Below, piece after piece: positions 4,181-56,034 of a stretch of 64,000 nucleotides of DNA. The stretch covers positions 13,379 to 77,378 of the forward strand of contig JAGVGJ010000003.1 of the NCBI GenBank assembly GCA_020057115.1, in the 5' to 3' direction. The DNA is from Candidatus Omnitrophota bacterium (lineage in GTDB: Bacteria > Omnitrophota > Gorgyraeia > 2-01-FULL-45-10). Numbering within the stretch: the stretch's first letter is position 1; each line of letters starts with the position of its first letter. The translations under genes and the position numbers were made by a program. The notes beneath the pieces are model-generated. The model ran no database searches. It had not been told where the DNA came from and saw nothing but the letters and a program-made list of their open reading frames with translations.

Positions 4181-4200
4181 GCCCTAGGGCCGATGGCAAT

Positions 4201-4247
4201 AAAAAACCCGCCCCCTTTTAGAGAGGGCGGGTTTTTTACAAGTAACT
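4201..4247. terminator. bidirectional Rho-independent terminator
   Basis: AAAAAACCCGCCCCCTTTTAGAGAGGGCGGGTTTTTT: GC stem flanked by A-tract and T-tract, immediately after the porin gene. Confidence 0.75.
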
Positions 4248-5780: not shown

Positions 5781-6015
5781 GCTGCCTCCTTTTAGGATTT
5801 ATGAATTATAGATACTTCTTATATTTGTAAAGCTTGGGCTTTCTTCTTTAGCGATATTCAACGTTGCGGCCCTTGCTTAATATATATTCATGCTTTATAT
5901 CTATAACGCCACGTCTTGACAACTTAGAACTGCTGGGTTCCACCACCTCCTTTTTCGTCATGATTTAAGTCGTCTATGGTGTTATAGCCGAACTGACTTT
6001 TGTCAGTTAACAAAA

Positions 6016-6088: not shown

Positions 6089-6739
6089 TTAAGATAAACA
6101 GGCAGAAACAAGTTTTGCGGAATTATTATATACCTTCTTTATACTGGCGTTGTCAAGGCCGAGGTTCTTAAGGAAGCGGCCTGCCTGGGCATCGGATATC
6201 AGGTTCTCAGGGCCATGGGAGTCGGTATTAAGCACAAGTTTAGCCCCTATCCGGCTTGCCAGCCTATAAACATGCTTATTAGTGATGCTATGGCTCTTCC
6301 TTGTGGTAAGCTCCAGGCATACCCCCAGCTTTTTGGCCAAGGAGACATCCTCTTTTGTGATATGCCCGGGGTGAGACAATATGTCGCAGCGCGCTTCAAT
6401 GGCTGCCCTGTTCGTTCCTTTGATCACAGGCTCTGAAACCGTCTCACCATGGACGACCACGATCTTCGCGCCGAGTTTTCGAGCGAGCTTTACAAGCCCT
6501 TTGATCTCCTGGACCGGCGCGTGAGTGATCTCAACGCCCGGGATAGCCCTAATCTTCCAATATTTATTGAGAATTTTACAGACCTTGGCAAGGCGAGGAA
6601 CGATAAGATCGATATTTGAAGAATCCGCATGGTCTGCAAGCGCAATCGCCTTATAGCCGATAACCTCGGCTCGCCGCACGAGCTCGCTGGGGAGCAATTC
6701 TCCATCAGAGAAAAGCGTGTGTGTGTGCAAGTCGATCAT
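6089..6739 (-). CDS. PHP-family metal-dependent phosphoesterase
   Basis: MIDLHTHTLFSDGELLP...ALADHAD...VHGETV...NTDSHGP His/Asp motifs of PHP domain. Confidence 0.7.
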   Translation of the reverse strand: MIDLHTHTLFSDGELLPSELVRRAEVIGYKAIALADHADSSNIDLIVPRLAKVCKILNKYWKIRAIPGVEITHAPVQEIKGLVKLARKLGAKIVVVHGETVSEPVIKGTNRAAIEARCDILSHPGHITKEDVSLAKKLGVCLELTTRKSHSITNKHVYRLASRIGAKLVLNTDSHGPENLISDAQAGRFLKNLGLDNASIKKVYNNSAKLVSACLS

Positions 6740-6759
6740 TGGCGTAAGCTCCTTATTAC

Positions 6760-6836
6760 TGGCGCCCCCGGCCTGAGTCGAACAGGCGACACCAGGTTTA
6801 GGAAACCTGTGCTCTATCCATCTGAGCTACGGGGGC
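6760..6836 (-). tRNA. tRNA-Arg (anticodon CCT)
   Basis: Cloverleaf by hand: acceptor GCCCCCG/CGGGGGC, anticodon stem CAGGU/ACCUG, loop UUCCUAA, T-loop UUCGACU, encoded CCA. Confidence 0.85.
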
Positions 6837-6883
6837 GACGGATAAACGAATGCTGATTATAGCAATATTTATCAGGCATGTAA

Positions 6884-6928
6884 ATAAAAAAGGGATAGCT
6901 CTCGAAAGAACCGTCCCTTTATTATTTA
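6884..6928. terminator. Rho-independent terminator after small secreted-protein gene
   Basis: A-tract, GGGA...UCCC stem, T-tract. Confidence 0.4.
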
Positions 6929-6940
6929 TGTATCCGTGCC

Positions 6941-7228
6941 TTATTTCGTGCTCACGTTCGTGCGCAGCGTCTGGGCCTTGGCCTTTGCAGAACCTTCAGC
7001 AATACCATCGCTCATATTCTGAAAATGGCTTGTGGTCGGAATTTTCGGGCCGCTGAACGTAACGACCTTGTTCTTCTCTTTTCCGGGACCGAGTGTCATG
7101 GAATCCGCCATCTTCTGGAATAGCGAACCTTCTTTTGAGCCTTCGCACTTGCCGCAGCTTGCGAAAGCCGGAACTGCGAACGCAACTACCACTGCTACTA
7201 CCAATACCAACAATGCTATCTTCCTCAT
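6941..7228 (-). CDS. small secreted protein (signal peptide, 95 aa)
   Basis: MRKIALLVLVVAVVVAFAVPAFA signal; GGAGGAAG RBS. Confidence 0.5.
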   Translation of the reverse strand: MRKIALLVLVVAVVVAFAVPAFASCGKCEGSKEGSLFQKMADSMTLGPGKEKNKVVTFSGPKIPTTSHFQNMSDGIAEGSAKAKAQTLRTNVSTK

Positions 7229-7292
7229 GCTACTTCCTCCTTTTAGGTTAGTGCCATTTATTTATAATAAATGCCTGCCCTTATTGCTGTAA

Positions 7293-7323
7293 AGTATACC
7301 CGTAAATTGCCACTTTTGTCAAC
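7293..7323 (-). promoter_or_regulatory. sigma-70 promoter TTGACA-17-TATACT for small secreted-protein gene
   Basis: Minus strand TTGACAaaagtggcaatttacgggTATACT. Confidence 0.5.
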
Positions 7324-7352
7324 TTATAGTTAAAAAAGAGCTGGCGATCCTA

Positions 7353-8817: not shown

Positions 8818-11625
8818 TTATTTCTTCTTCGCTTCTATAACTGCCTGCGCAGCCGCGAGGCGCGCTATAGGCACGCGGAACGGCGAGCAGCTTACGTAAT
8901 TCATGCCGACCTTATGGCAGAACTTGACGCTCTCCGGCTCTCCGCCATGCTCTCCGCAGATGCCGACCTTCAGGTCCTTCCTGGTCTTGCGACCGCGTTC
9001 TATGCCGATCTTTATCAGCTCGCCTATGCCGTCTTGATCGATAGTTTGGAATGGATCCGCCGGGAGTATTTTGTTATTGATATAATCCGGCAGGAAACTT
9101 CCGATATCATCGCGGCTGAACCCGAAGCCCATTTGCGTCAGGTCATTGGTACCGAACGAGAAGAACTCCGCAGTCTCGGCCATCTTACCGGCCTGGAGCG
9201 CGGCACGCGGTATCTCGATCATTGTGCCGTACATGAAAGGCATGCTCTTAAGCCCGAACTTCGTGCATACCTCTTTATATACTTTATCTACTATCACCTT
9301 CTGGTTGTCGAGCTCTGCCTTCGCGACCGTGACCGGGATCATGATCTCGGCGATCGCCTTCTTGCCTGCCTTATTCAGCTCGGCGGCGGCTTCTAGGATC
9401 GCTCGAACCTGCATCTCGGTTATCTCAGGATAAGTTATCCCGAGCCTTACTCCGCGGTGGCCTAGCATCGGATTATTCTCCTTCAATGCCTCGGCGCGCT
9501 TGTGCAGCTCGCTCATGTCGACTCCGAGGTCTTTTGCAAGCGCCTGGAGTTTCTCCTCGCTGTGCGGGACGAACTCGTGGAGCGGCGGATCAAGGAGCCT
9601 GATAGTGACAGGATATCCCTTCATCGCTTCGAGAGTAGCCTTGACATCGCTCTTCACATACGGGAAGAGCTCGCTCAGCGCCTCTTTTCTCTCTGCGAGG
9701 GTCTTTGACATGATCATCTTCCTGAGGAGGAACAGCGGCTTGTCGCTGCCCTCGCCGTAGAACATGTGCTCTGTCCTGAAGAGACCGATACCCTCGGCGC
9801 CGAACGCGATAGCCTGCGCGGCGTCCTTTGGAGTATCCGCATTGGTGCGGACCTTGAGCGTCCTATACTTATCGACGAGCTTCATCAGCTCTTTATATGA
9901 TTTATTATTCTCGATATCGCAATCGACGAGCGGCATCTTGCCTGTATACACAAAGCCGCTGGTGCCGTTCAAGCTGATCCAGTCGCCTTCTTTTACAACA
10001 GCGCCGGACTTGGTCTTGAAGGATTTATCATCATCGGCTATGTCGAGCTCCGAACAGCCGACTATACAGCACTTGCCCCAGCCGCGGGCTACGAGAGCCG
10101 CGTGGGAGGTCATGCCTCCCTTGGCAGTCAGGATCGCCTGCGCCTTGTGCATGCCGTCGACATCTTCGGGAGAGGTCTCTTCACGCACGAGGATCACCTT
10201 CTCGCCGCGCGAAGCCCATGCCACAGCGTCGTTGGACGTAAATACCGCGCGTCCGATGGCGCCGCCCGGGCCGGCCGGCAGGCCTTTTGCTATGGCCTTA
10301 GTGGAACCCTCGGCCTTAGGATCGAGCATCGGGAGAAGAAGCTCGACCAGCTGGTTAGGAGCGACTCTCTTTATTGCTGTCTCTGCATCGATGAACTTGT
10401 CCTTATACATGTCCATTGCCATCCTGACTGCGGCTGTGCCGTTACGCTTTCCAACGCGACACTGGAGCATGAATAGCTTGTCATTCTCGATCGTGAACTC
10501 AATATCCTGCATATCCTTATAGTGGTTCTCAAGCCTTGTCTTTATATCATCGAGCTCCTTATAGAGCTTCGGCATGAGCTTCTCAAGTGAAGTCATGGAC
10601 TTTGACTGGTCGTTCTTCGAGCAGTCGTTTATCGGAGCAGGCGTGCGGATACCTGCGACGACGTCTTCACCCTGCGCATTCACGAGATACTCGCCGTAGA
10701 ACTTGTTTTCGCCGTTACCGGGGTTGCGGCTGAATGCCACGCCCGTGGCGCAATCATCGCCCATGTTGCCGAATACCATCGACTGGACATTGACGGCCGT
10801 GCCCCACTCATCCGGTATGCGCTCTATCCTACGGTACTCTATGGCGCGCTTGCCGTTCCATGATGAGAATACGGCGCCGATACCGCCCCAGAGCTGCTCT
10901 TCGGCGGTTTCCGGGAACGGCTTTCCGAGGACGTCCTTGACCGTCTTTTTGAACTCGGCTACGAGGGCCTTCAGGTCCTCGGCAGTGAGATCTGTGTCTG
11001 ACTTATAACCTTTTGAGTGTTTCACCTTCTCGAGCTTCTCGTCTAGGACTTTGCGGATACCCTTGCCGCCCTTAGGTTCAACACCGGCCGCCTTTTCCAT
11101 GACGACGTCGGAATACATCATTATGAGCCTGCGGTATGCATCGTACGCAAAGCGCTCGTTGCCGCCGGTCTGCTTTATGAGGCCAGCGATCGTCTTATCC
11201 GTAAGGCCGACATTCAGAACGGTCTCCATCATGCCGGGCATCGAGCTACGCGCGCCTGAACGGACGGATACGAGAAGCGGGTTGTTGACATCGCCGAACT
11301 TTTTACCCATGATCTTCTCTACGCCCGCCATCGCCGTTTCAACCTGGCCCTGGAGCTCTTTAGGATACTTCTTGCCGTTATCGTAATAATATGTGCAGAC
11401 CTCGGTCGTGACCGTGAAGCCCGGAGGTACCGGAAGCCTCAGTTTGGGGTGACCGGCCATGGCCGCGAGGTTCGCGCCCTTGCCGCCCAACAGGTTCTTC
11501 ATCGTCTCATCCCCGTCGGCCTTCCCGCCGCCGAAGAAATAAACATACTTGGTGCCCTTCGATACCGTTTTCCCGCCTGTCTTCCCGCTCATCGTTGCTT
11601 GAACTCCTTCCATTTTTACTGCCAC
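8818..11625 (-). CDS. ppdK: pyruvate, phosphate dikinase
   Basis: Full-length PPDK motifs (GGMTSHAA(L/V)VARG, TNDLTQ, GICGEHGG); start may be the internal MSGKTGG. Confidence 0.95.
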   Translation of the reverse strand: MAVKMEGVQATMSGKTGGKTVSKGTKYVYFFGGGKADGDETMKNLLGGKGANLAAMAGHPKLRLPVPPGFTVTTEVCTYYYDNGKKYPKELQGQVETAMAGVEKIMGKKFGDVNNPLLVSVRSGARSSMPGMMETVLNVGLTDKTIAGLIKQTGGNERFAYDAYRRLIMMYSDVVMEKAAGVEPKGGKGIRKVLDEKLEKVKHSKGYKSDTDLTAEDLKALVAEFKKTVKDVLGKPFPETAEEQLWGGIGAVFSSWNGKRAIEYRRIERIPDEWGTAVNVQSMVFGNMGDDCATGVAFSRNPGNGENKFYGEYLVNAQGEDVVAGIRTPAPINDCSKNDQSKSMTSLEKLMPKLYKELDDIKTRLENHYKDMQDIEFTIENDKLFMLQCRVGKRNGTAAVRMAMDMYKDKFIDAETAIKRVAPNQLVELLLPMLDPKAEGSTKAIAKGLPAGPGGAIGRAVFTSNDAVAWASRGEKVILVREETSPEDVDGMHKAQAILTAKGGMTSHAALVARGWGKCCIVGCSELDIADDDKSFKTKSGAVVKEGDWISLNGTSGFVYTGKMPLVDCDIENNKSYKELMKLVDKYRTLKVRTNADTPKDAAQAIAFGAEGIGLFRTEHMFYGEGSDKPLFLLRKMIMSKTLAERKEALSELFPYVKSDVKATLEAMKGYPVTIRLLDPPLHEFVPHSEEKLQALAKDLGVDMSELHKRAEALKENNPMLGHRGVRLGITYPEITEMQVRAILEAAAELNKAGKKAIAEIMIPVTVAKAELDNQKVIVDKVYKEVCTKFGLKSMPFMYGTMIEIPRAALQAGKMAETAEFFSFGTNDLTQMGFGFSRDDIGSFLPDYINNKILPADPFQTIDQDGIGELIKIGIERGRKTRKDLKVGICGEHGGEPESVKFCHKVGMNYVSCSPFRVPIARLAAAQAVIEAKKK

Positions 11626-11709: not shown

Positions 11710-13023
11710 TTACGCAAGCTTCTCGATTAAATACTCTTTGATGTTGGCGATGTCGATCCTGTCCTGCAGCATCGTATCCCTGTCGCGGACCGTGACCTTC
11801 TTGTCCGCGAGACTGTCCACGTCGACAGTCACGCAATACGGCGTGCCCACCTCATCCTGGCGCCTGTAAAGCCGCCCGATCGAGGCAGTATCATCGTACA
11901 TCACCTTCATCTCTTTCCTTAAGCCATTGGTTATATTCTTCGCAAGCTCGACTATCTCGGGCCTGTTCCTCAAAAGCGGCAGCACCGCCACTTTTAAAGG
12001 GGCAAGCCTCTTGTGGAATGCGAGACTCACGCGTTTTTCGCCTTTGACCTCCTCTTCTCTGTACGCATCCGCCAGGAACGCAAGGATCGACCTGTCTATC
12101 CCGCCCGACGGTTCAATTACATAAGGTATATACCGTTCTTTGGTGACCTCGTCAAAAAATACAAGGTCTTTGCCCGAGAGCTGCATGTGTTGTTTCAAGT
12201 CAAAGTCGGTCCTGTTGGCGATACCCTCAAGCTCCGACCATCCGAACGGGAAATTGTATTCTATGTCCGTACACGCCTTGGCATAATGGGCGAGTTCGGT
12301 CTTCTCGTGCTCCCTCTTCCTTAAATTCTCTTTTCTGATGCCGTATTTTATATACCAGCCGTAACGCTCCTCCACCCATTTGCGGTACCAATCCTCATCC
12401 GTGCCGGGCTTTACAAAGAACTCTATCTCCATCTGTTCGAACTCGCGGGAGCGGAATGTAAAGCTTTTTGTGGTGACTTCATTGCGGAATGATTTTCCCA
12501 TCTGAGCTACGCCGAACGGGACTTTACGGCGCATGGAATTCACTACATTCTGGAAATTGACGAATATGCCCTGGGCCGTCTCCGGCCTCATATAGGTGAG
12601 GCTTGTGGCATCTTCGATAGGTCCGAGGTGGGTCTTGAGCATCATGTTGAATTGCCTCGGCTCGGTGAGCTCGCCGCCGCACTCCGGGCATTTTTTGCCG
12701 GTGATATTCTCGACCTTGAAGCGCTTCTTGCAGCCCTTACAATCGACAAGCGTGTCTTCGAAATTTGATACGTGCCCTGACGCCATCCAGGTCATCGGGT
12801 GCATAAGTATAGCCGCGTCAAGGCCGTCTATATCATCGCGCTCATATACATTTGAGCGCCACCACACCTCTTTTAAGTTGCGTTTAAGCTCAGCGCCCAG
12901 CGGGCCATAGTCCCATGTAGCGGCCAGGCCTCCGTATATCTCGCTTGATTGGAATACAAAACCGCGCCTCTTGCAAAGCGATACTATCTTCTCCATCACA
13001 TCTTGCGTTTGGGCCTGCTGCAT
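11710..13023 (-). CDS. glyQS: glycine--tRNA ligase, class II alpha2 type
   Basis: EIYGGLAATWDYGPLG N-terminus, class II motifs, 437 aa. Confidence 0.9.
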   Translation of the reverse strand: MQQAQTQDVMEKIVSLCKRRGFVFQSSEIYGGLAATWDYGPLGAELKRNLKEVWWRSNVYERDDIDGLDAAILMHPMTWMASGHVSNFEDTLVDCKGCKKRFKVENITGKKCPECGGELTEPRQFNMMLKTHLGPIEDATSLTYMRPETAQGIFVNFQNVVNSMRRKVPFGVAQMGKSFRNEVTTKSFTFRSREFEQMEIEFFVKPGTDEDWYRKWVEERYGWYIKYGIRKENLRKREHEKTELAHYAKACTDIEYNFPFGWSELEGIANRTDFDLKQHMQLSGKDLVFFDEVTKERYIPYVIEPSGGIDRSILAFLADAYREEEVKGEKRVSLAFHKRLAPLKVAVLPLLRNRPEIVELAKNITNGLRKEMKVMYDDTASIGRLYRRQDEVGTPYCVTVDVDSLADKKVTVRDRDTMLQDRIDIANIKEYLIEKLA

Positions 13024-13636
13024 ATTGTTATCTTTGCCTTATAACTAATGTAATTACAAATAGGGGTGGGAAAAACTTGGATATCTTAACATGCGCCTCT
13101 TATAAAATCAAGAGAAAACGATGAGATGATAATTTTTTCGGCCGCTGGCTTCTCTCCCCTCTCGGGGTGGTAAGGGTGTCTTCCAGCGAACGTTCACTTT
13201 CCAGAGGAAAGTTCACTCGGAAGGCCGCAATCTTCGTTGAAAGATTGCGGCCTTCGACGTCGCTTCCAGACACCCTTACCACCCCTCGGGGGCCCCTTCG
13301 AGTGGGCCAAAAAATATGGGGAGTGGAAACTGGTTCACTATCTCGAGTAAAACTGAGGCATGATTGGAAAAAATGAAGGAAGAATTTTCCTCATGGAGTA
13401 GGCGCGGCCCGCTGGGGTGGGTCTTGAAGCGGCCTTGAAAAATTTTGATACCTTATGCCAATTTAGCAAGGCCGGACAAACCTGTCAATTGCTTTACTTA
13501 TAGTCCGGGTTGGCCGGCCATCAAAATTTTTCGGAGTGAGCGAAGATGGCTAATCTGAGCGAACGTCCGCGTAAAGACCCACCCCAAAAGGGCCGATAGC
13601 CTTCATGGGAAGGAAAATTCTGACTGGGGGAAATTT
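13024..13636 (-). promoter_or_regulatory. about 600-bp ORF-free structured region (glyQS leader / downstream of rSAM) with nested long inverted repeats
   Basis: 17-bp perfect inverted repeat ggggtggtaagggtgtc/gacacccttaccacccc (13165-13181 vs 13272-13288) enclosing a 15-bp hairpin; 12-bp pair ggggtgggtctt/aagacccacccc (13404-13415 vs 13577-13588); further CCCACCCC near the glyQS RBS. Confidence 0.5.
13460..13488 (-). promoter_or_regulatory. sigma-70 promoter TTGACA-17-TAAATT inside the structured region, directed toward glyQS
   Basis: Minus strand TTGACAggtttgtccggccttgcTAAATT. Confidence 0.4.
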
Positions 13637-14701
13637 TCAGTGCAAAATTGACCTGATGTTCGGGGTGAATTTTGTCTTGGCTTCGCAGCCGCCTGTCTCA
13701 GAATAACAAAAAGACGGGTAACCGGTAAGCGCCGACTTTCTCAGCTCGATATAACGTTTTGAATTCCATATCTTGCCGATAGGCTCATTCATGATATTGC
13801 CCATGCCCGAATCGCATTTATAATTTGCCAGATAACAGCAAGGGACCACATCGCCATCTGAACGTATCATCATATGTTTCCATGGGCGCGGGCATCTCCA
13901 CGCTGAACCGGGAAGAGCGGACTTCGACACTTCCTCCTTGGTTTTGCGATATCCGTACATCGTACATACGATCCCTTTATATTTTGCATAAGCAACCGCC
14001 ATCTCCATAGCCGGAGTAGCCAGATCATCGGACACCTCAAGCTCAGGACAATTGTGCACACGCTGGAAAGCGAGTGAACCAAATTCATGCTCAACGGCGA
14101 AGTCCACCATTCCGTTCAACCTGTCGATATTCAGCTTATTAACGAGGCAGTGGCATTCTTTGGATAAAGCGCTCTTCAGTCCGATCCGCTTGTCATTCAA
14201 CGCCCTAAGACTGCTCACCAATCGCTTCCAGGACCCGCCCCTCCTTATCCGCTCATAAATATCGGGGTCGCTGCTGTCTATAGAAAATATCAGGTTGACG
14301 TTCGGAGACTTGCATAAGAGCGCTGCTATCTTATCGTCGTCAAGCAATAATCCATTGGTCGTTATTTGAACCTTGAGATCTTTGAACCTTGCGCACTTTT
14401 CAATGAATGGACCGATATCGGCATTCAGCAATGTCTCTCCCCAGCCATTGAGCTCTATCAATTCCAAATAGCCAAGCCACCCGCTCTTGACTATTTTATC
14501 GAATAGGCCGGGAACAGCGCGCCTTCCCCATTCAATATTCTCTTTTTCGCTGCGGCACATCACGCAGTGGAGGTTGCATAAAGTGCCCGGCTCGATCTGC
14601 AGCCATGTCGGCACGCTCTTTAACGCCAGTTTGCCTTCAATAAATTCTGAATGATTAAGCCTTTTATTCCTAAGGAACATGCGTCTTTCCAGGCCGAACA
14701 T
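13637..14701 (-). CDS. radical SAM protein with C-terminal SPASM domain (peptide/protein-modifying maturase family)
   Basis: CNLHCVMC (Cx3Cx2C), GWGETLL, and C-terminal Cys-rich SPASM segment (CPRPW...CCYLANYKCDSG...C). Confidence 0.8.
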   Translation of the reverse strand: MFGLERRMFLRNKRLNHSEFIEGKLALKSVPTWLQIEPGTLCNLHCVMCRSEKENIEWGRRAVPGLFDKIVKSGWLGYLELIELNGWGETLLNADIGPFIEKCARFKDLKVQITTNGLLLDDDKIAALLCKSPNVNLIFSIDSSDPDIYERIRRGGSWKRLVSSLRALNDKRIGLKSALSKECHCLVNKLNIDRLNGMVDFAVEHEFGSLAFQRVHNCPELEVSDDLATPAMEMAVAYAKYKGIVCTMYGYRKTKEEVSKSALPGSAWRCPRPWKHMMIRSDGDVVPCCYLANYKCDSGMGNIMNEPIGKIWNSKRYIELRKSALTGYPSFCYSETGGCEAKTKFTPNIRSILH

Positions 14702-14705
14702 AATA

Positions 14706-15512
14706 TCACTGCCTCTCCAGATCCTTCATGAATTCCACCGTCCTGAGACGGCGCTCTATGTGATAATCGAGAAACCTGCGCAGGACCTGTTCGAGCTCCC
14801 TGCCCACGTCCTGCGAGACCTTGACGCGGTCGATCTTGTCGAACGGCGAGTTCTGGATATACTCGATGAACTTTACCGTACCGGGTAACATCGGCCGCGC
14901 CGATTTATCCGCCCCAAGGCAGGTCTTGCACAATAGACCGCCGTTGCGAAGGCTAAAACGCGCCGCACCGTCTAGCGCCCCGCCGCAGCTGGCGCACTCG
15001 GTCATGGCCGGCATGAGCCCTATCAGGCTTAAAAGCTTTATTTCGAATATCCTGGCGACGCGCTTCGCGCTCGCGTCGGTACATAATAATTTGAGGCTGT
15101 TCACCGTAAGATCATATGCCTCTGGGTTCGCGTCGCCGAGCGTCGTCACGGAGTCGAGGAGCTCTATCATGTAAGTGGCGTGGGCTAGCCTGTCAAGGGA
15201 TTCTCTGGCTGGGCTGAAGAACTCGGCAAGGTCGCACTGCGACACCGTGAAGATATCGCCCTTCTTCCTGTCGTAGAATACTATATCGTCGCGGCTGAAT
15301 ATCTCAAGCGCCGCGCCGCCCTGTGAGCCGCGCGAGCCGCGTACGCCCCTCAAGATGCCTTTTATCTTGCCGAAATCCCTGGTGTAGAAAGTGACTATGA
15401 GGCTCGTCTCTCTGAGTTCCTGCTTCCTTAAAATGAGAGCCTCTGATTTTTGGATGGTCAATTTCAGCCTATTTTGATTAACGAAGTAATTGGAATATGA
15501 GGGTCGTGACAA
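14706..15512 (-). CDS. recO: DNA repair protein RecO
   Basis: OB-fold N-terminus and CASCGG...CKTC zinc motif. Confidence 0.85.
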   Translation of the reverse strand: MSRPSYSNYFVNQNRLKLTIQKSEALILRKQELRETSLIVTFYTRDFGKIKGILRGVRGSRGSQGGAALEIFSRDDIVFYDRKKGDIFTVSQCDLAEFFSPARESLDRLAHATYMIELLDSVTTLGDANPEAYDLTVNSLKLLCTDASAKRVARIFEIKLLSLIGLMPAMTECASCGGALDGAARFSLRNGGLLCKTCLGADKSARPMLPGTVKFIEYIQNSPFDKIDRVKVSQDVGRELEQVLRRFLDYHIERRLRTVEFMKDLERQ

Positions 15513-16176
15513 GAATTCCCAGGAGGGCGCCTACAATGACCTCCCATATGGTATGGATAGAGTCCTTTATCCTATGCCTGGCTATGAGAAACGCGAGCAG
15601 GAATACGAGCATGACGACACCGAAATTATTTGTCATGAATGTTATTATCGTCCATACCGAGAATGCGACGGCCGCGTGCCCTGAAGGCATCCCGCCGCGA
15701 AGCGGCGTGCCCCTGTGAAAGAAAGCCTTGCCAACGATAGTGAACGCAAGCACCAGTATCAGCGATATGAATGTCATATGCCACGAGGATTGCCGCAGGC
15801 GCGCTATGCCGTCTTCCATGTTGAACGGCACCCTCTTCGAGAAGAGGACATATCCGACTATGACTGCATTTATCGCGGTAAGGAGGACCGCTCCCGCCGC
15901 GACATCCTTGACTATGCGCGCTATAGGATGGAACTCGCTCTTCACCATATCCACCACGAGCTCAAGGGCCGTATTTACCATCTCGGACAAAAGGACGATC
16001 GCTATGGTCACGAAGAGTATCATGAGCTCCGTAGCTGAAAGGTTCAGGTATATCCCCAGGAGTATTATGAACAGGCCTATGAAGAAATGGACGCGCATGT
16101 TGCGCTCCGTCTTCATCATGTAGATGAACCCCTCTACCGCCGCATTAAGACTTTCGATAAATCTATTTTCGTGCAT
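15478..16176 (-). CDS. fusion of prokaryotic diacylglycerol kinase (DgkA) and PAP2 phosphatase domains
   Basis: DgkA signature ESLNAAVEGF at N-terminus; PAP2 motifs PSGH and SR..HRIKDSIHT at C-terminus. Confidence 0.6.
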   Translation of the reverse strand: MHENRFIESLNAAVEGFIYMMKTERNMRVHFFIGLFIILLGIYLNLSATELMILFVTIAIVLLSEMVNTALELVVDMVKSEFHPIARIVKDVAAGAVLLTAINAVIVGYVLFSKRVPFNMEDGIARLRQSSWHMTFISLILVLAFTIVGKAFFHRGTPLRGGMPSGHAAVAFSVWTIITFMTNNFGVVMLVFLLAFLIARHRIKDSIHTIWEVIVGALLGILVTTLIFQLLR

Positions 16177-16610
16177 AATCTCTCCAGTACCTTCTCCTGT
16201 TTTCTCGACATCCTCGCGCGGGCATCTTTCGTATAGTCCTCGTATCCGAATAGATGAAGGATGCCGTGTATCACGTAAAGCGCTATCTCTTCTTCCAGGC
16301 GCGTGCCATATATGGCGCAGTTCTTAACGGCCGTATCGGTTGAGATGAATATCTCCCCAAAAAACCCGTCCTCGCCAAACTCGCCGGATGCGATATTGAA
16401 ACTTAAGACATCGGTGGCGCGGTCTTTGCCCCTGTATTTCCTGTTGAGCGGCCTGATGGCTTTATCGCTTAAAAATACCACCTCGAGCGAGCCCATGCCG
16501 CGCCTCTTTATTATGCCGAGGACTTCAAGGACCAGGCGCCTTATAAATCTTTCGTCCAGCCTGAAGGTCTTGTTGCGGTTATCTATCCGTATCTTTGGGA
16601 GCGCTGTCAT
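16134..16610 (-). CDS. ybeY: rRNA maturation RNase YbeY
   Basis: HGILHLFGYEDY metal-binding motif. Confidence 0.85.
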   Translation of the reverse strand: MTALPKIRIDNRNKTFRLDERFIRRLVLEVLGIIKRRGMGSLEVVFLSDKAIRPLNRKYRGKDRATDVLSFNIASGEFGEDGFFGEIFISTDTAVKNCAIYGTRLEEEIALYVIHGILHLFGYEDYTKDARARMSRKQEKVLERLCTKIDLSKVLMRR

Positions 16611-26326: not shown

Positions 26327-27454
26327 TTATGCTTTCCTGATTTTCCTTACCGCAAGCCCGATCGCTGCACCGAGGAATGATATGATAGTTGAAGGTTCCG
26401 GCACTCCTGGTGATGGCGGCGGTTCACTAAAGTGATCGCCGGCGGTGCCTTGATATAAGCCATCCTCAATTACCCGATTATTGCCATAGCCCGCAATCCG
26501 GTCTGGAAGGGGCGGAGCATCAAAATAAAGAATAGGTTCCCAGTTCCCTCCAGAAAACGTACCATTTACTGTAACAAAAAGAGTTGTCATATTATAATAA
26601 GTGTCTTCATCCATAGATCCAAAAACTGTTGTATACCATTCGGAAGCCATAGGACCTGTCGATACACCTGTCAGGCCTGTTACCCCGTTCATAGTGAAAG
26701 ATACGTGAAGGCCGAGTCCGTCTTCAGTATAAAGAGAGGTATCATAATCATACGGCGTCAGCATTGAAAAAACACCAGTGTTCATATCCGCGTCATACTC
26801 ATATTTATAAAGAAAGCCGCCGAGCACGGGGCCGTCAGTCAGCCATCCATCAGATAAAACACCGTATGTATCGTCCCATCGGCTACCGCCTTGATACTGG
26901 GTACTCTCTACAGACCCGCTACCGCTGAGCTGTGTTAAAGTCCCCTCATTATAATCCCATTGCACCGGCCCGGAAGGATCAGTATCATAGTCAGGCCCGT
27001 GGAGCACAAAAGTCGAGAAATTCAATTTCCAGCCGGAGCTTACCGCATCTGCAAAATTCACATCCACTGCCAAAGGATTCATAAGATCTCTCTCCGCGGT
27101 TCCGGTAAATGAAACCGGGCTCGGGGCATTAATGGTCAAGGTTGCGGATCCCGGTACATTTATCTCCGATTGCCAGAAACTAAGGTCCCAGCCATAGCCA
27201 TTTAAACCCAGATCCGGGCCTTGCTGTTGTGTGAGAAGGAGCGGATTAGGATCATCCTGGGGCACTTCTACGCTGCCATAATAGTCATACCAGCCGGTCC
27301 CGTAAGTTAAAGAGCCGTGATCGCTATCCCAACAGGATACAAGTGTAAACTGAGTATCCGTACCACCGCCACCGCCACCACCGCCTGCGATCGCAGGAAC
27401 CGTGAAAGCCAGCATAAAGCCTATAGCCATCATCGTTATCAGTATGTTTTTCAT
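26327..27454 (-). CDS. PEP-CTERM sorting-domain secreted protein
   Basis: Start trimmed to MKNILITMMAIG (GAAGG RBS); poly-Gly linker; C-terminal VPEPSTIISFLGAAIGLAVRKIRKA = PEP-CTERM motif, TM helix and basic tail. Confidence 0.75.
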   Translation of the reverse strand: MKNILITMMAIGFMLAFTVPAIAGGGGGGGGTDTQFTLVSCWDSDHGSLTYGTGWYDYYGSVEVPQDDPNPLLLTQQQGPDLGLNGYGWDLSFWQSEINVPGSATLTINAPSPVSFTGTAERDLMNPLAVDVNFADAVSSGWKLNFSTFVLHGPDYDTDPSGPVQWDYNEGTLTQLSGSGSVESTQYQGGSRWDDTYGVLSDGWLTDGPVLGGFLYKYEYDADMNTGVFSMLTPYDYDTSLYTEDGLGLHVSFTMNGVTGLTGVSTGPMASEWYTTVFGSMDEDTYYNMTTLFVTVNGTFSGGNWEPILYFDAPPLPDRIAGYGNNRVIEDGLYQGTAGDHFSEPPPSPGVPEPSTIISFLGAAIGLAVRKIRKA

Positions 27455-27483
27455 TTTATCGCCTTCAACCTTCTGCAAGCCAA

Positions 27484-27516
27484 TAAAAAATCCCAACCTT
27501 CAAAAAGATTGGGATG
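27484..27516 (-). terminator. intrinsic-terminator-like hairpin in 5' leader (expression platform candidate)
   Basis: Minus strand AUCCCAAUCUUUUUGAAGGUUGGGAUUUUUUAUU located between conserved leader motif and RBS. Confidence 0.5.
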
Positions 27517-27527
27517 CAAAGCAATGA

Positions 27528-27613
27528 CTCGCGTTTTACGTTACGCTTATAAACGGCAACTGGCTGCCATCGTCCTCTCGGACTTTAGGCCCTATAGCTT
27601 TGCGTCCACACCC
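27528..27613 (-). ncRNA. conserved PEP-CTERM leader motif, copy 1 (candidate cis-regulatory RNA)
   Basis: Shares ...CAGGGCCUAA-[hairpin]-AUGGCAGCCAGUUGCCGU-...ACGU.AAA.CGAG with copy 2; hairpin GUCC-GAGA-GGAC here versus UCUCC-GUA-GGAGA in copy 2 (compensatory). Confidence 0.5.
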
Positions 27614-27843
27614 TTTCGAGTGGTTTGCGATTTATACACCGTCAAAAAGAACATACTTCTTCGTTCTAATTATAGAATACACTATATTGTATGTTAAGTC
27701 AATAGAAGCTTTGCTGCCTATTTTCTCGCCACCCTCAGATGATCTATTTTAACACCTTATAGTCAAGCAAAAACAGAGCATGCATATCACGCCCAATATT
27801 ATCATTTCTGTTATGAATATTTCCTTTCCGTTTCTCGTAATTA

Positions 27844-30800
27844 TCATTTTTGTTTTTTGCATATACATCCTCTCCTTTTTAAAAGTCTTCGATAACCGAG
27901 CATAAAAATACCGCTTATTATACTCACGACCGTCGCCGGCTCAGGAACTGAATTAAGAGGCTCGGGATCTCCCTGGTTGCTATAATAAGGATTACCCAGC
28001 GAAAAACCTGTAAATGAAGTGCCTCCTGTTATGGTGACGAGCTTGTTAACCTCATCTATGCTTGTGGTGGTGAACTTATGCCACAGGTTATCGCTACCAT
28101 AGTGGTATACGGTGAGGTCTGCCGGCAATATGCCTAGTGAGTTTAACAACAGCTCATCATACCTGAAGATTATGTCGACAGAGCCGAATACAAGCGACGG
28201 CGCTTCATCGCCAGGATTCTCGCCCCAGGTATATGTGTGAGCCCCTGACGCTACCTGTATGGCCGGGAGGGTCAGCTTACCTTGATTGGTGGCGAACCAT
28301 CCGTTTGTTGTGGTGTTGTCTATGGTATTCGTGACGCTTGCAAAGCCTGACATATCAAGCGTGCCGCCGTCAGCTATTATGCGGCCGTTATTGGTAAGGG
28401 TGCCTGTCATGCCTACAGCGCCTTGGCCCTGGAAGATTCCTGCTACGTCACTGGTATTTCTCACGACAAGATTACCCCCGCTTAATCCATCGCCGCTTAG
28501 GGTGAGTATTCCTGTGCCGCTATTTCCGATGATAACATTTCCGGCGGTAAGCGTCTTTCCGCTTGCCAGGGTGAACGAGCCGGTCGTGCTTGCAGCATTA
28601 CCGACATTAAAGTTCTCTATACTGATATCATTACTTGATAGCGCGAGCATTCCGCCGTCCATATTAATGGTGCCTGTGCCTGCAATATTATTTATGGATG
28701 TGGCATTAAGCGTCCCGCCGCTGTTTAGGTTCAATGTGCCTGTGCCGATAGTGACTACTTTGGCATTAGCCGTATCGCCTATATTCGCAACTGCGCTTGT
28801 AGCATCTATGGCGACATTGTTCGTAGCTTGCGGTATCACCTGAGGATTCCAGCTTGAGGCGCTTGACCAATTGCCTGTAGTCGTGTTCCACACTAGGTCC
28901 CCAAATGAGAATGTGAGTACTAGGTTTGTGCCTACTACGTTCTTGGTAAAGCTGCCTGAGCCGAACTGGTTGTCTATGGATGAGGTATCCGTAAAGCTCT
29001 TAGATAAATCCCACGAGAGGATATTAAAGGTATTGCCCTCGGCTATAGACCATGTGCCATACTTGGCTATCCTTAATGTGCCGTCTAGGCTTACATCTCC
29101 TCCGTTAACGTCTATGGTGTCATAGTATTGGCCGGGGGTCCCGCCTATGCCGCCGAGCTCGAATATTATAGTACCTGAATTTGTGAAGTTGCCGTTTATC
29201 GTGGTAAGCCCGGGTGAATTACCTGGAGACAGCGTGCCGCCTGACTGCACATTCAATGCGCCGTTAAATGTGTTCACGCTTAACGTGCCGCCTGTGAAAT
29301 TAAAGGCACTTGTGCCTGAGCCTCTTGTTATCGTTGTAGCCTTCAGATATCCGCCTTGGAGGTCATAGGTGCCGCTTGAGCCGACGTTATTACCTAAAAT
29401 AATAACGCCTGCCTGGTTCGTGCCACCTGTCTGAGTAAATGTGCCTTTGCCGGAAGCGCCGATATATTCAGTCTTGCCGGTTGCGTCAAGTAAGCCTGTC
29501 CCGGAAAGTGAATAGACGCCTGTGGCGCCTGCAGCGGAACCGATAGTGAGCGTGCCTTTCACTGAGGTGACGCCGGCTGACTGGGTGTACGTGCCGTTTG
29601 CACCGGCGCCGTTATACCCTATGCTGATCTGATAAGCATCGTTCGTGCCGCCTGTCTGGGTGAATGTGCCCTTACCCAGGTTTCCGATATATTCATATAA
29701 AGTTTTAGAATCAATGTAACCTGTGCCGGAAAGATTATAACTGCCTGAGGAGCCTGAGGCATTGCCTACATTCAGGGAACCTGCGCCTCCTGATAATATT
29801 TTGGCCGTTCCGCCTGACTGCGTGTAAGTGCCGTTTGAAAGGTTATTATTACCTACATTAATAATTTTTGCCTGGTTGGTGCCGCCTGTCTGGGTGAATG
29901 CGCCTGTTCCGGTGGATCCTATGTTTTCGGTTGCATTTGTCCCATCTATAAGGCCTGTGCCGGAGAGAAAATAACTGCCTTCGGAAGTGCTGTTATTGCC
30001 AACGTAGAAGGCGCTTGTTACTGTATTTGTCCCGCCCGACTGGGTGTATGTGCCGCTTGAACCTGAACTATTACCTATATATATAGTAGCCGTCTGATTC
30101 GTACCACCGGACTGAATTAGAGTGCCTTTTCCGGAATTGCCGATGTATTCCGTAGGAGCTGAAAGGAAGCCACCCGACACAGAATATGTTCCTGAAGATC
30201 CTGACAGATTGCCAACGCTGAATGTGCTTATTCCTTTATATGTCCCGCCTGTCTGTGTATATGTGGCGTTTGAGCCGGAAGAATTACCGATATTTAAATT
30301 AGATACAGCCATGGAATTGGCGGTCAATGTGAATGTGCCGCCGTCTATATTTAAAGTACTTGTGCCCACAGGAGCTGCTATTGCATTTGTTACGCTTAGC
30401 GCTCCGCCGCTTAATGTATATGTGCCGTTGCCGCCTGTACCTGTCGCGAGACCTAGCGTCGCGGCAATATTAGTGTCGCCTGATTGGGTGAATGTGCCTG
30501 CGCCTGAGGTACTTATAGATTCACTGGTTGTTGTCAGCGTGCCGCCTGTCATATTGATATTGCCGCTATCGCCTGAATTTTGGGCGAGATATAAATTAGC
30601 CGCGGCTGCTCCGGCAGTCGTGATGGACACTGTCCCGCCATTATTAATAGAGACGGCGTCCGAACTTGTGGGCACACCGGTCGTCCAGCTGCCAGAAGTA
30701 CTCCAATCGTCTGTAGTCGCTTGCCACATATTATTGTCATAGCCGATCGCGAGGTCGCCTGTAAAAGCAGCGACACTGCCAAAACTAGTCGTAGTCAACC

Positions 30801-32277
30801 AATTATTCGTAGTATCAACACTTGAAGTAACATCTGCCCATGCGCTGCCATTATACCGGTAGATCTTTAGGTTAGCCTCATGCGAACCTGCCAATAGATC
30901 ATCGTACCTGAAAATGATATTTGTTGAAGTGGCCGTAAAACTTGCAGGGACAACGTTGTAGTAACTTATCAAAGTGCTTGTTGCGAGCGGATGGATGTCG
31001 GAGGTCCTATCAAGAGAAAGAAGCGACATGGTCAGTGATCCGGAGGCACCTGATTCCCCTGCGAATGTAAATCGAGCGCTATTGACAAGGTCTATAGTAG
31101 TATCACTGGGAGCCTCCCCCCAATTGTAAGAACCATTTCCTGTTATCGAAAGTGCCTTCAAGGTCAGCTTACCTTTATTCTGGGCAAACCATCCGTTCGT
31201 CCCGCCTGTAGTCGGATTCTCCATGGTATTTCCAATGCCATTTACGACATTTGCAAGACTCAAAGTCTGTTCAGCGCCATAGCCATCAGCGATAACGCGG
31301 CCGTTATTGACGAGCGCGCTATAAGTCACTGTAGGCGAGCCGTATCCCATGAGTGTGCCTGAGGCTCCTGCATCCTGGCGAACAGTCATGCCAACGTTGG
31401 ATATAAATGTTCCGCCTTTAAGTTCGTATGTTCCGCTTCCGCTGGCACCAGCTCCTATATAAACGTTTCCTACCCCCACCCGATTAGTACCGCCCGTCTG
31501 GACAAATCTGCCGCTGCCAGATTTACCTATATATTCACTCGCACTAGACGAAAGGTCGCCTCCGGATAAAATATAAGTACCTGCGGCGCCTGCCTCTGAG
31601 CCGATCATAAGGCCGGTACTTGTTATTCTGACTGTCCCGCCAGATTGGGTGTATGTGCCGCTTAAGCCGCTGTAAAAACCTACGGTAATATTAATCCCCT
31701 GGTTCGTGCCGCCAGTTTGAGTAAATGTGCCTGTTCCGTTACTACCGATGTATTGAGCTGCGGTGGTAGTTGTATCTAAAATACCTGTGCCGGAGAGAGA
31801 ATAACTGCCTTTAGAGCCAGCGCCATCGCCAAGGTAGAGTGACCCTGTTACTTTGTTTGTCCCGCCTGATTGGGTAAATGTGCCTGTACCGTATTGGCCT
31901 AAAGTTTCATAATACACCGTTAGATTGCCGGATGTCATGTTCACGGTTCCGGTGGTGCCAGCAAATTGGCCTAAAGTGAGATCATACGTGGCTTCGCTTG
32001 GCTGCGTGATATTTACTATGCCATTGTTATTTACTTTTGAATAATCACCGGACGCCGGTTCTGTGCCTCCCCAGTTGGAGCCCGTGGACCAATCGCCCGC
32101 ATTGCCGGCAGCTCGCGACCAAACTCTAGTTGCCGCGACAGCGGGCGGGGCATGTACCATGGCTATTAACGATATGACCATAAAAATTCCGATGCTAAGA
32201 GTAGCGATCTTTCTAAACAATGCCCTCACCCCTTTCAGGTTTTTGTGAATCATTTTATTTGTTGATCTATTTTTCAT
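27844..32277 (-). CDS. giant PEP-CTERM protein (1477 aa) with about 40-aa Gly/Thr/Ser-rich beta-strand repeats
   Basis: Start trimmed to MKNRSTNK (AGGA RBS); signal peptide; more than 20 repeats of GTFTQ(S/T)GGTN...; C-terminal VPEPATVVSIISGIFMLGYRRLLKRR PEP-CTERM. Confidence 0.8.
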   Translation of the reverse strand: MKNRSTNKMIHKNLKGVRALFRKIATLSIGIFMVISLIAMVHAPPAVAATRVWSRAAGNAGDWSTGSNWGGTEPASGDYSKVNNNGIVNITQPSEATYDLTLGQFAGTTGTVNMTSGNLTVYYETLGQYGTGTFTQSGGTNKVTGSLYLGDGAGSKGSYSLSGTGILDTTTTAAQYIGSNGTGTFTQTGGTNQGINITVGFYSGLSGTYTQSGGTVRITSTGLMIGSEAGAAGTYILSGGDLSSSASEYIGKSGSGRFVQTGGTNRVGVGNVYIGAGASGSGTYELKGGTFISNVGMTVRQDAGASGTLMGYGSPTVTYSALVNNGRVIADGYGAEQTLSLANVVNGIGNTMENPTTGGTNGWFAQNKGKLTLKALSITGNGSYNWGEAPSDTTIDLVNSARFTFAGESGASGSLTMSLLSLDRTSDIHPLATSTLISYYNVVPASFTATSTNIIFRYDDLLAGSHEANLKIYRYNGSAWADVTSSVDTTNNWLTTTSFGSVAAFTGDLAIGYDNNMWQATTDDWSTSGSWTTGVPTSSDAVSINNGGTVSITTAGAAAANLYLAQNSGDSGNINMTGGTLTTTSESISTSGAGTFTQSGDTNIAATLGLATGTGGNGTYTLSGGALSVTNAIAAPVGTSTLNIDGGTFTLTANSMAVSNLNIGNSSGSNATYTQTGGTYKGISTFSVGNLSGSSGTYSVSGGFLSAPTEYIGNSGKGTLIQSGGTNQTATIYIGNSSGSSGTYTQSGGTNTVTSAFYVGNNSTSEGSYFLSGTGLIDGTNATENIGSTGTGAFTQTGGTNQAKIINVGNNNLSNGTYTQSGGTAKILSGGAGSLNVGNASGSSGSYNLSGTGYIDSKTLYEYIGNLGKGTFTQTGGTNDAYQISIGYNGAGANGTYTQSAGVTSVKGTLTIGSAAGATGVYSLSGTGLLDATGKTEYIGASGKGTFTQTGGTNQAGVIILGNNVGSSGTYDLQGGYLKATTITRGSGTSAFNFTGGTLSVNTFNGALNVQSGGTLSPGNSPGLTTINGNFTNSGTIIFELGGIGGTPGQYYDTIDVNGGDVSLDGTLRIAKYGTWSIAEGNTFNILSWDLSKSFTDTSSIDNQFGSGSFTKNVVGTNLVLTFSFGDLVWNTTTGNWSSASSWNPQVIPQATNNVAIDATSAVANIGDTANAKVVTIGTGTLNLNSGGTLNATSINNIAGTGTINMDGGMLALSSNDISIENFNVGNAASTTGSFTLASGKTLTAGNVIIGNSGTGILTLSGDGLSGGNLVVRNTSDVAGIFQGQGAVGMTGTLTNNGRIIADGGTLDMSGFASVTNTIDNTTTNGWFATNQGKLTLPAIQVASGAHTYTWGENPGDEAPSLVFGSVDIIFRYDELLLNSLGILPADLTVYHYGSDNLWHKFTTTSIDEVNKLVTITGGTSFTGFSLGNPYYSNQGDPEPLNSVPEPATVVSIISGIFMLGYRRLLKRRGCICKKQK

Positions 32278-32304
32278 TTTTTTCCTGGACCCTAAAACAA
32301 AGAT

Positions 32305-32378
32305 CCCAACCACGCATACTGCATGATTGGGAGTTAAAATAAAAATCCCGACCTACATTTCTAGATCGGGAGATAAAA
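32305..32378 (-). terminator. two tandem intrinsic-terminator-like hairpins in 5' leader of giant PEP-CTERM gene
   Basis: CUCCCGAUCUAGAAAUGUAGGUCGGGAUUUUUAUUUU then CCCAAUCAUGCAGUAUGCGUGGUUGGGAUCUUUGUUUU, immediately before the RBS. Confidence 0.45.
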
Positions 32379-32380
32379 AC

Positions 32381-32468
32381 TCTCATCTCGCTTTCACGTA
32401 AGCAAATACGGCAACTGGCTGCCATTGTCTCCTACGGAGAGTTAGGCCCTGTAGTTTTGCCACGCCAT
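32381..32468 (-). ncRNA. conserved PEP-CTERM leader motif, copy 2
   Basis: See copy 1; identical 18-nt core AUGGCAGCCAGUUGCCGU; near-identical promoters (TTAACA-17-TATAAT versus TTAACA-17-TAGATT) upstream of both. Confidence 0.5.
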
Positions 32469-32659
32469 ATTATTTGATTGGCGCGATCCCGCGCTATTCG
32501 TAGGGATGTCGCCGGGTTTCCCCGGGTTTGCTATTATCCGAAACACCTAAAGAACAATGCCAAGCTCGATCACAAATCTAGTATATCTTATAATCTATGT
32601 TAAAGCAATAGAAACCTAGCTTCCTATTTCCGTGTTAACGGGTGATTGGAAAAAGATAA

Positions 32660-54618: not shown

Positions 54619-55626
54619 TTAGTAGGCGCTCTCTTCTTTTGGAGAGCGTGTCATGAGATCCTGGACTGCTTTTTTAGGATCCTTATTCTCATAAAGGACC
54701 TTGTATATCTCTGATGTAATGGGCATTTCGACTTTACATCTCTTCGCAAGCTCATATGCGGACTTCGTGGTCGCGACACCTTCAATGACCATCTCCGTCC
54801 CCTTCAGAATATCTTTAAGTTTCTTGCCCTTGCCTATCTCTTCTCCGAGCCACCTGTTGCGGCTGTATGAGCTCATGCATGTGGTCGCAAGGTCGCCGAG
54901 ACCGCTCAAACCGTAGAATGTTTCGCGCTTCGCGCCCATCGCGAGGCCGAGCCTGACTATCTCGACCAGGCCGCGCGTGAGAAGCGCCGCCTTGGCGTTA
55001 GTGCCGAAACCGAGCCCGTCGGAGGCGCCAGCCGCTATGGCTATTATGTTCTTTATAGAACCGCCGACCTCGACGCCGATAATATCATTATTCGTATATA
55101 CCCTGAAGCGGTCGGTCATGAATATCTCCTGGACCGCCTTAGCAAGCTCAAAGTCTGTGGAAGATGCTACGATAGTGGTGGGAACGCCGTTGGCCACTTC
55201 AAGCGCTATTGTGGGTCCGGAAAGCATAGCAAGCGGAATGTCACCGAGCACTTCGGTGATCAACTCCGACATGAGCTTCAGCGTGCCATTTTCTATCCCT
55301 TTGGTGACGCTGACAAATACCTTGCCCGAGAGGTCCTCCATCTTGATCATGGCGAGAACGCCTCTTAAGTATTGGGACGGCACAGCAAGGACGATGAGGT
55401 CGCTCTTCTTTACCGCCTCATCCATGGATGAAGTTATGCAGATATCCGGCGGTATCTTGACGCCGGGCAAAAATTTCACATTCTCCCTGTCGCGCTTCAG
55501 GATCTCGACGTAATCGGGAAATATGCCCCAGATCGTGACGCCGAAACCTTTCTTAGAAAGGAGTATCCCCAGCGTCGTCCCCCACCCCCCGTCTCCTATC
55601 ACAGCTATATTCTTTACCGGTTTCAT
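54619..55626 (-). CDS. gpsA: NAD(P)H-dependent glycerol-3-phosphate dehydrogenase
   Basis: IAVIGDGGWGT Rossmann N-terminus, 335 aa. Confidence 0.9.
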   Translation of the reverse strand: MKPVKNIAVIGDGGWGTTLGILLSKKGFGVTIWGIFPDYVEILKRDRENVKFLPGVKIPPDICITSSMDEAVKKSDLIVLAVPSQYLRGVLAMIKMEDLSGKVFVSVTKGIENGTLKLMSELITEVLGDIPLAMLSGPTIALEVANGVPTTIVASSTDFELAKAVQEIFMTDRFRVYTNNDIIGVEVGGSIKNIIAIAAGASDGLGFGTNAKAALLTRGLVEIVRLGLAMGAKRETFYGLSGLGDLATTCMSSYSRNRWLGEEIGKGKKLKDILKGTEMVIEGVATTKSAYELAKRCKVEMPITSEIYKVLYENKDPKKAVQDLMTRSPKEESAY

Positions 55627-55748: not shown

Positions 55749-55800
55749 CAAGATAGCAAGATAAGGCAAGATAAGGTAAGGCCAAGATAAGCAAGATAAG
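55749..55800. repeat. tandem 9-mer array (CAAGATAAG x about 5)
   Basis: caagatagcaagataaggcaagataaggtaaggccaagataagcaagataag. Confidence 0.7.
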
Positions 55801-56034
55801 GGACGTTTCTAAATCTGATCTTGGGACGTTTGTAAATTCCATCCTGCACCTGTCCCCTAACTTTTTAGTGGACTGGCGCGATTTTTAATTTTGGGACATG
55901 CGTAAGATGGATTTTAGAAATATTCCTATATCTGTTTATGCCTATATATTGTATCCCTCCTTCCCGGGGACAGGTGTGATCTTAAATTTGGGGACACATG
56001 CAGGATGGAATTTAGAAACGTCCCTAATTTTTGC
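55798..56034. repeat. cluster of four 35-bp GGGAC-N25-GTCCC palindromic units in mixed orientation
   Basis: Units at 55798-55815 (partial), 55821-55857, 55901-55936, 55989-56034; the second and fourth are near-exact inverted copies (gggacgtttgtaaattccatcctgcacctgtcccc versus rc gggacgtttctaaattccatcctgcatgtgtcccc). Confidence 0.7.

Follow-up and report, generated by a model that had tools for sequence, protein, structure and literature searches.

A probable cluster of palindromic intergenic repeats beside the glyQS promoter of an Omnitrophota bacterium

Results

Two quasi-palindromes occupy a 613-bp gap upstream of glyQS

The DNA analyzed here, referred to as the window, is a 64-kb stretch from a Candidatus Omnitrophota bacterium. 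A 613-bp intergenic gap in this window separates a radical SAM/SPASM gene from glyQS, and all genes around the gap are located on the minus strand:

8818-11625, minus strand: ppdK, next after glyQS in gene order
11710-13023, minus strand: glyQS, a class II glycyl-tRNA synthetase by Pfam, with homologues from Omnitrophota named glycine--tRNA ligase
13024-13636: intergenic gap of 613 bp between the radical SAM/SPASM gene and glyQS
13637-14701, minus strand: radical SAM/SPASM gene (rSAM-SPASM), with the Pfam domains Radical_SAM and SPASM
14706-15512, minus strand: recO
15478-16176, minus strand: dgkA/PAP2
16134-16610, minus strand: ybeY

The nested inverted repeats that the initial annotation had reported in this gap do exist, being visible in the sequence and statistically far beyond chance, but their coordinates were off by 1-10 nt. 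The perfect 17-bp repeat GGGGTGGTAAGGGTGTC, placed previously at 13165-13181 and 13272-13288, is found at 13164-13180 (plus strand) and 13269-13285 (minus strand); the pairing around it is in fact perfect over 18 bp, and a second copy of the 17-mer would be expected by chance 0.05 times in the 64-kb window. Its reported 5-bp extension (AGCGA/TCGCT) is included in extended arms at 13157-13189 and 13260-13292, and the enclosed perfect 15-bp hairpin is present at 13220-13234 and 13241-13255. The second pair, GGGGTGGGTCTT, lies at 13414-13425 and 13574-13585 rather than at 13404-13415 and 13577-13588, and extends into 20-nt arms (13413-13432 and 13567-13586). We also found stems that had escaped the earlier description, at 13132-13146/13301-13315, 13381-13391/13611-13621, and 13437-13449/13520-13532. 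With these outer and inner stems added, each domain becomes a quasi-palindrome over its whole length, and we refer to the two as elements A and B:

13132-13315: element A, a quasi-palindrome over the whole 184 nt
13132-13146 and 13301-13315: outer stem of A, A/T-rich
13157-13189 and 13260-13292: long-type unit arms of A, 33 nt, 82% complementary
13164-13181 and 13268-13285: core of the A arms, perfect over 18 bp
13196-13212: side hairpin of A, 7 bp, between GTTCACT direct repeats
13220-13255: apical hairpin of A, perfect over 15 bp
13316-13380: spacer between A and B
13381-13621: element B, a quasi-palindrome over the whole 241 nt
13381-13391 and 13611-13621: outer stem of B
13413-13432 and 13567-13586: short-type unit arms of B
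13437-13449 and 13520-13532: inner stem of B
about 13533-13566: extra insert of ~34 nt in the right half of B

The arms of A and B are copies of one ~45-55-nt unit with the core GGGGTGG(TAAGGGT)GTCTTnnnGCGnACGTTC, and five of the six occurrences of GGGGTGG in the 64-kb window fall inside the gap. The gap holds four units in the orientation +,-,+,-, which amounts to two inverted pairs and two hairpins. The spacers between inverted partners (70 nt in A and 134 nt in B) are themselves structured, each unit contains internal palindromes (CCCC-N4-GGGG and the GCGAACGTTCGC type), and the palindromy of each element is broken by one insertion in one half. Between A and B, a degenerate fragment at 13333-13351 resembles the interior of A at 13192-13210 (79% over 19 nt). 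Both elements are shorter than 300 bp, non-coding, and palindromic from end to end, as looked for in a MITE with terminal inverted repeats (TIRs). The flanks of A read ...GATA/ATTTTTT...AAAAAAT/ATGG (slashes mark the borders), where a TA duplication is possible, although it is seen in a single copy and is inseparable from the A/T-rich outer stem.

Calling the gap ORF-free, as had been done, holds loosely, since mechanical ORFs of 43-69 aa occur in it; these are mirror-image by-products of the palindromes, and neither A nor B contains a credible ORF. The promoter-like site that had been described as pointing toward glyQS (TTGACA-17-TAAATT) is present inside B, on the minus strand at 13488-13460, with an upstream TG and 10 of 12 consensus matches. 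Promoter-like sites are not enriched in the region relative to shuffled sequences (2 found, 1.4 expected), and this one may be a putative outward-facing promoter carried by B.

Folding of the gap points to repeats at the DNA level

Folding z-scores of the gap were about -10 to -13 on both strands, while those of 12 other intergenic gaps in the window ranged from +0.3 to -5.4. Element A had nearly the same folding energy on either strand (-103.2 vs -105.7 kcal/mol), and its 64-69 predicted pairs included only 2-3 G-U pairs, with only 3-5 among the 82-88 pairs predicted for B. A permissive Rfam search of 12500-14200 (E up to 10) gave chance matches only (E >1), Rfam at gathering thresholds across the whole window gave two tRNAs and two c-di-GMP-I riboswitches, all outside the gap, and ARAGORN made no prediction within the gap. 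Since the stability is strand-symmetric, the pairing is almost purely Watson-Crick, and no Rfam family matches, these findings argue for DNA-level repeats rather than a selected RNA. Perfect 15- and 18-bp stems with scarce G-U pairs are the pattern of recent inverted duplication at the DNA level. The shape of the hairpins had suggested SRP, 6S, tmRNA, and T-box RNAs as candidates, and these were ruled out by the Rfam results.

The same data bear on whether the gap encodes structured non-coding RNA, as one gene or two; an sRNA that starts from the promoter-like site in B and contains hairpin A would be an example. The very stable predicted structures and the 10/12 match of the TG-extended promoter at 13488-13460 would fit such a gene. 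Nevertheless, we consider it very improbable, as the permissive Rfam search (E up to 10) produced no family match, no terminator follows A on either strand, and strand symmetry together with a near-absence of G-U pairs is atypical of selected RNAs. As described below, the region is also missing from the syntenic loci of relatives, and what occurs at other loci are fragments of units, arranged in direct orientation and unable to form the same fold.

Other structured regions of the window were noted alongside the gap. The two c-di-GMP-I riboswitch aptamers (RF01051), at 27552-27639 and 32407-32476 on the minus strand, scored 70.8 and 36.9 bits (gathering score, 35), and they occupy the gaps that precede a 389-aa ORF (26327-27496) and a 1489-aa ORF (27844-32313). 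Another long inverted repeat occupies 55793-56031, in the gap between a glycerol-3-phosphate dehydrogenase gene (54619-55626, minus strand) and the divergent dus (56005-57045, plus strand); its 41-nt arms (55823-55863 and 55984-56024) are 88% complementary, a second pair overlaps them, and its sequence is unrelated to the GGGGTGG family. A second gap of likewise exactly 613 bp, at 6740-7352 between the PRT and PHP genes, holds a tRNA-Arg(CCT) at 6760-6836 and shows moderate structure (z of -3 to -4); its counterpart in the related contig L001 contains a palindrome with 38-nt arms.

The palindromes and the rSAM-SPASM gene are missing from related loci

Look-ups for exact matches to the GlyRS, rSAM, and RecO proteins of the window gave no record, and the comparison therefore used relatives. 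Two related Omnitrophota contigs, L019 and L021, encode GlyRS proteins that are 83-85% identical to that of the window and have the gene order ybeY-dgkA/PAP2-recO-glyQS-ppdK-sigma-PRT, with no rSAM gene and no palindromes. The distance between recO and glyQS is 98 nt in L019 and 118 nt in L021. The corresponding gap is just 165 nt in a relative with an 89%-identical GlyRS, and for the two closest glyQS relatives the contig sequence ahead of the gene stops after 179 nt and 290 nt. Since only 98 or 118 nt separate recO from glyQS in these relatives, the rSAM gene and the palindromes represent a lineage-specific insertion, and this comparison of gene order indicates that 13132-14705 (rSAM, B, spacer, and A) is the ~1.57-kb segment inserted specifically in this lineage.

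L019 and L021 lack the rSAM gene together with the palindromes, and the inserted block is contiguous from 13132 to 14705, as would be expected if the palindromes were scars or terminal structures of a mobile event that brought rSAM-SPASM between recO and glyQS in the same cassette. We find this explanation quite unlikely. The gene has both palindromes on the same side; on the recO side, where the rSAM-SPASM ATG is 4 nt past the recO stop, there is no GGGGTGG unit and no inverted partner. A 5.8-billion-protein database contains only about seven homologues of the protein (50-58% identical), and those that we examined have unrelated neighborhoods, with downstream gaps of 52 nt and 129 nt and no sequence like the palindromes. 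In addition, the contigs L008 and L028 carry units next to rimP without an rSAM gene, and no attC-type core sites are visible. By these comparisons, the palindromes are not tied to the rSAM gene. An integron attC or cassette origin was rejected as well, with no RYYYAAC/GTTRRRY cores and no integrase, and so was a RiPP precursor in the gap, given that the small ORFs are palindrome mirror images without Cys and that units also occur without rSAM. One of the rSAM homologues lies among glycosyltransferases and adjoins a PqqD-like gene.

The closest relative, L001, whose GlyRS is 93% identical, carries intergenic palindromes of its own, which are built from short tandem repeats, are located at 1-75, 5786-5968, and 6610-6685, and are unrelated to those of the window. 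At its contig end, directly upstream of the glyQS promoter, lies a perfect palindrome, ACTAGGCGACTAAGT-N7-ACTTAGTCGCCTAGT, with 15-nt arms at 1-15 and 23-37, while two other gaps contain TACGCAA-type and TAGTCGG-type heptamer arrays as inverted pairs. Since L001 has palindromes in several gaps, including the one upstream of the glyQS promoter, long lineage-specific intergenic palindromes seem, from these sequences, to be a habit of this clade.

The conserved glyQS promoter lies downstream of both palindromes

We aligned the short gaps of four related loci (L001, L019, L020, and L021) with the ~110 nt of the window that lie nearest to glyQS. The invariant columns include a TG-extended promoter on the minus strand at 13111-13083, consisting of a -35 box TTGATT (13111-13106), a 17-nt spacer, and a -10 box TAAGAT (13088-13083), within the invariant motif GTTTT..CTTGATTT-N-ATGnTAaGATA. 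This conserved promoter is located downstream of both A and B, with 20 nt between the end of palindrome A and the -35 box, and its position predicts a TSS near 13076 and a 5'UTR of ~53 nt to the glyQS ATG (13023). The additional box GGGGTGGG that had been noticed 40 nt ahead of the glyQS ATG is indeed there, at 13063-13070. It is the fifth GGGGTGG box in the gap (plus strand), reads CCCACCCC on the glyQS strand, lies within the short 5'UTR, and is shared with the closest relative L001 (as CCCCACC), not with L019 or L021.

The initial annotation had proposed that the G-rich and C-rich blocks form mutually exclusive pairings on a glyQS leader RNA, making it an attenuator or riboswitch. In favor of this, the 5'UTR contains the CCCACCCC box, to which GGGGTGG blocks located further upstream on that strand are complementary, and transcription from the distal promoter-like site would place these blocks on one RNA. 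We regard the proposal as barely credible, since the invariant proximal promoter, with its conserved TSS ~53 nt from the ATG, is downstream of all hairpins, and an attenuator reading fails when the promoter lies downstream of both palindromes. The leader is also not conserved in the way such a role would require: L019, L020, and L021 have none of these palindromes, and neither does the visible part of L001. Further, each G block already has a perfect partner inside its own palindrome, no terminator or SD-sequestering alternative is present, and Rfam gave no T-box, glycine riboswitch, or other family match. A TSS close to the glyQS start, which the initial annotation took to exclude an attenuator, is placed there by comparative evidence rather than by TSS mapping.

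No intrinsic terminator was detected between rSAM and the glyQS promoter. The hairpins themselves have no U-tract, while canonical terminators exist in this genome, for example, at 4200-4238.

Units of the same family recur upstream of rimP in other Omnitrophota

We scanned collections of genome contigs and metagenome contigs, neither of which includes the source contig, with exact 18-mer seeds. The genome contigs gave four single chance matches, and the metagenome contigs gave nine matches, of which only L008 extended past the seed. L008 is an Omnitrophota contig of 1,074 nt that carries rimP and has three units upstream of the rimP promoter, in tandem and in the same orientation. Two of them resemble the left arm of A, one at 93% identity over 45 nt and one at 84% over 51 nt, and the third, at 1033-1058, is a B-type unit (92% over 26 nt to the B arm). 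A second contig, L028, was reached without a DNA seed, through a RimP that is 90% identical to that of L008; its positions 1-71 match B over the outer stem and the right arm (78% over 73 nt, window positions 13548-13620) and are followed by an additional CCCCAGAAGGGCCG fragment. The rimP promoter and leader are near-identical base by base between L008 and L028, while the number, type, and order of units differ, and such different arrangements at one rimP site suggest rapid turnover. Just ahead of the rimP start codon, the leader contains a conserved hairpin followed by a T-run (L008 814-846 and L028 181-213; GTGGGTTTATACATACGTAGACCCAC in L028, with L008 ending ...GACCCGC), which may act as a terminator or attenuator in the leader of the rimP-nusA operon.

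An alignment of eight units defines one family with a common GTCTTnnnGCGnACGTTC tail and two forms, a long form (...CCCCTCTCGGGGTGGTAAGGGTGTCTTnnnGCGAACGTTC...) with TAAGGGT after GGGGTGG and a short form (...GGCCCnnnTGGGGTGGGTCTTnnnGCGGACGTTC...). All unit copies found are intergenic. Outside the gap, neither blastn-short nor an nhmmer profile of the eight units detected a copy in the 64-kb window, and a search of about 100 kb of other Omnitrophota loci gave no further copy; one cluster in 64 kb places the density far below that of classical REPs. The collections searched with exact 18-mer seeds yielded no full-length second copy of A or B, with L008 and L028 both truncated. In viral contigs, degenerate A-type and B-type patterns gave chance matches within coding regions or none, blastn of phage and plasmid records gave no match to the elements, and transposase, Y1_Tnp, and RAYT domains were absent from the 43 window ORFs scanned.

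At each of the three loci (the window, L008, and L028), a stretch of 17-23 nt lies between the repeat block and the -35 box of a sigma-70-type promoter downstream, and the operons that follow (glyQS; rimP) are translation-related. This shared spacing could speak for a cis-regulatory role rather than selfish spread, with the units acting as an upstream module that controls the glyQS and rimP-nusA promoters through GGGGTGG protein-binding sites, or as exapted hairpin insulators or terminators that shield these promoters from read-through. Since no canonical terminator separates rSAM from the glyQS promoter, the hairpins are the only candidate barrier there. We still judge such a module unlikely, because just two distinct gene contexts are known, the relatives use the same conserved glyQS promoter without units, and unit number, type, and orientation vary between L008 and L028 at one site. 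Tolerated intergenic repeats also pile up naturally at promoter boundaries, so a block ending there could reflect simple insertion tolerance as well as hint at a cis-regulatory or insulating role, and a terminator role in particular sits poorly with hairpins that lack the U-tract of the terminator at 4200-4238. A stronger version, in which the GGGGTGG units are a dedicated, non-selfish module of one Omnitrophota clade set ~20 nt upstream of translation-operon promoters (glyQS; rimP-nusA-infB), strikes us as improbable; it would serve either as a set of sites bound by a putative growth-rate regulator or as hairpin insulators that RNase III processes and that take the place of canonical terminators.

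Discussion

We conclude that the gap upstream of glyQS probably holds a group of clustered palindromic repeats that are intergenic, specific to this lineage, and similar in kind to REP/BIME/REPIN elements or foldback MITEs. The initial annotation had offered miniature inverted-repeat elements as an alternative, and the repeat part of that idea is supported, with the arms recurring upstream of rimP. Since ~50-nt units occur in tandem and in direct orientation there, a REP-like unit able to pair up fits better than fixed MITEs of 125 bp and 185 bp with those termini. A literature search on Omnitrophota intergenic inverted repeats found nothing relevant, and under this reading the family is a new one, undescribed before in this phylum.

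Multi-copy repeats are typical break points of assemblies, and the repeat reading gains support from where the related contigs break: the L008 contig end and the L028 contig start both fall inside repeats, and the two closest glyQS relatives have contigs that likewise stop a short way upstream of the gene. On the other hand, no dispersed copies beyond these loci and no full-length copies occur in the data searched, and both are points against it.

Under the repeat reading, the units would spread or rearrange at the DNA level, and the cluster may have arisen or landed in newly inserted intergenic DNA beside the ancestral glyQS promoter. Since no canonical terminator lies between rSAM and the glyQS promoter, transcripts of recO-rSAM probably read into B and then A. 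By analogy with REP and Correia elements, the long near-perfect hairpins on this read-through RNA would block 3' exonucleases and would be substrates for RNase III. Such effects would decouple glyQS, with a promoter of its own, from the operon upstream, and B may contribute an outward promoter; any function of this kind would be secondary and perhaps incidental.

For annotation, these results remove a false riboswitch or attenuator lead, place the conserved glyQS promoter, and mark rSAM-SPASM and the hairpins as a recent insertion in the otherwise conserved ybeY-dgkA-recO-glyQS-ppdK block. They also document undescribed palindromic repeats in Omnitrophota, a phylum for which nearly all knowledge comes from fragmented MAGs and where four related contigs end at or in such repeats, which could mark recent genome rearrangement. 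If the units are truly tied to translation-gene promoters, they would offer a way into a regulatory system of this uncultured phylum.

Among known systems, the leaders of aminoacyl-tRNA synthetase genes (T-box and glycine riboswitch) share with the gap only the location upstream of glyQS; they differ in sequence and structure by Rfam, and the elements here are upstream of the promoter and missing in relatives. The resemblance to the REP/BIME/REPIN repeats of Enterobacteria and Pseudomonas is closer. REPs sit between genes and can stabilize or process upstream mRNA. In both cases, the units are short, lie outside genes, and contain small palindromes; they can stand alone, be repeated in tandem, or face each other in inverted pairs that fold into long hairpins, and they build mosaic clusters of two unit types in alternating orientation (the three units of L008 being direct) that are lineage-specific and turn over fast between close relatives. 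Unlike REPs, the gap unit is longer (~50 nt), its partners are separated by long, structured spacers (70 and 134 nt), and no RAYT transposase is found among the 43 window ORFs scanned. REP families also reach tens to hundreds of copies per genome, while the family described here is known from one cluster in 64 kb, with the unit at a second locus seen only in other organisms (L008 and L028). Foldback MITEs, such as the Neisseria Correia, ERIC/IRU, and pneumococcal BOX/RUP elements, differ in that no full-length second A or B was found, and a MITE of fixed structure would not predict the tandem direct arms without interiors in L008. Like A and B, however, they measure 100-250 bp, form one long hairpin over the whole element, insert between genes by promoters, and can carry an outward-facing promoter, and the modular composition of BOX elements resembles that of the elements in the gap.
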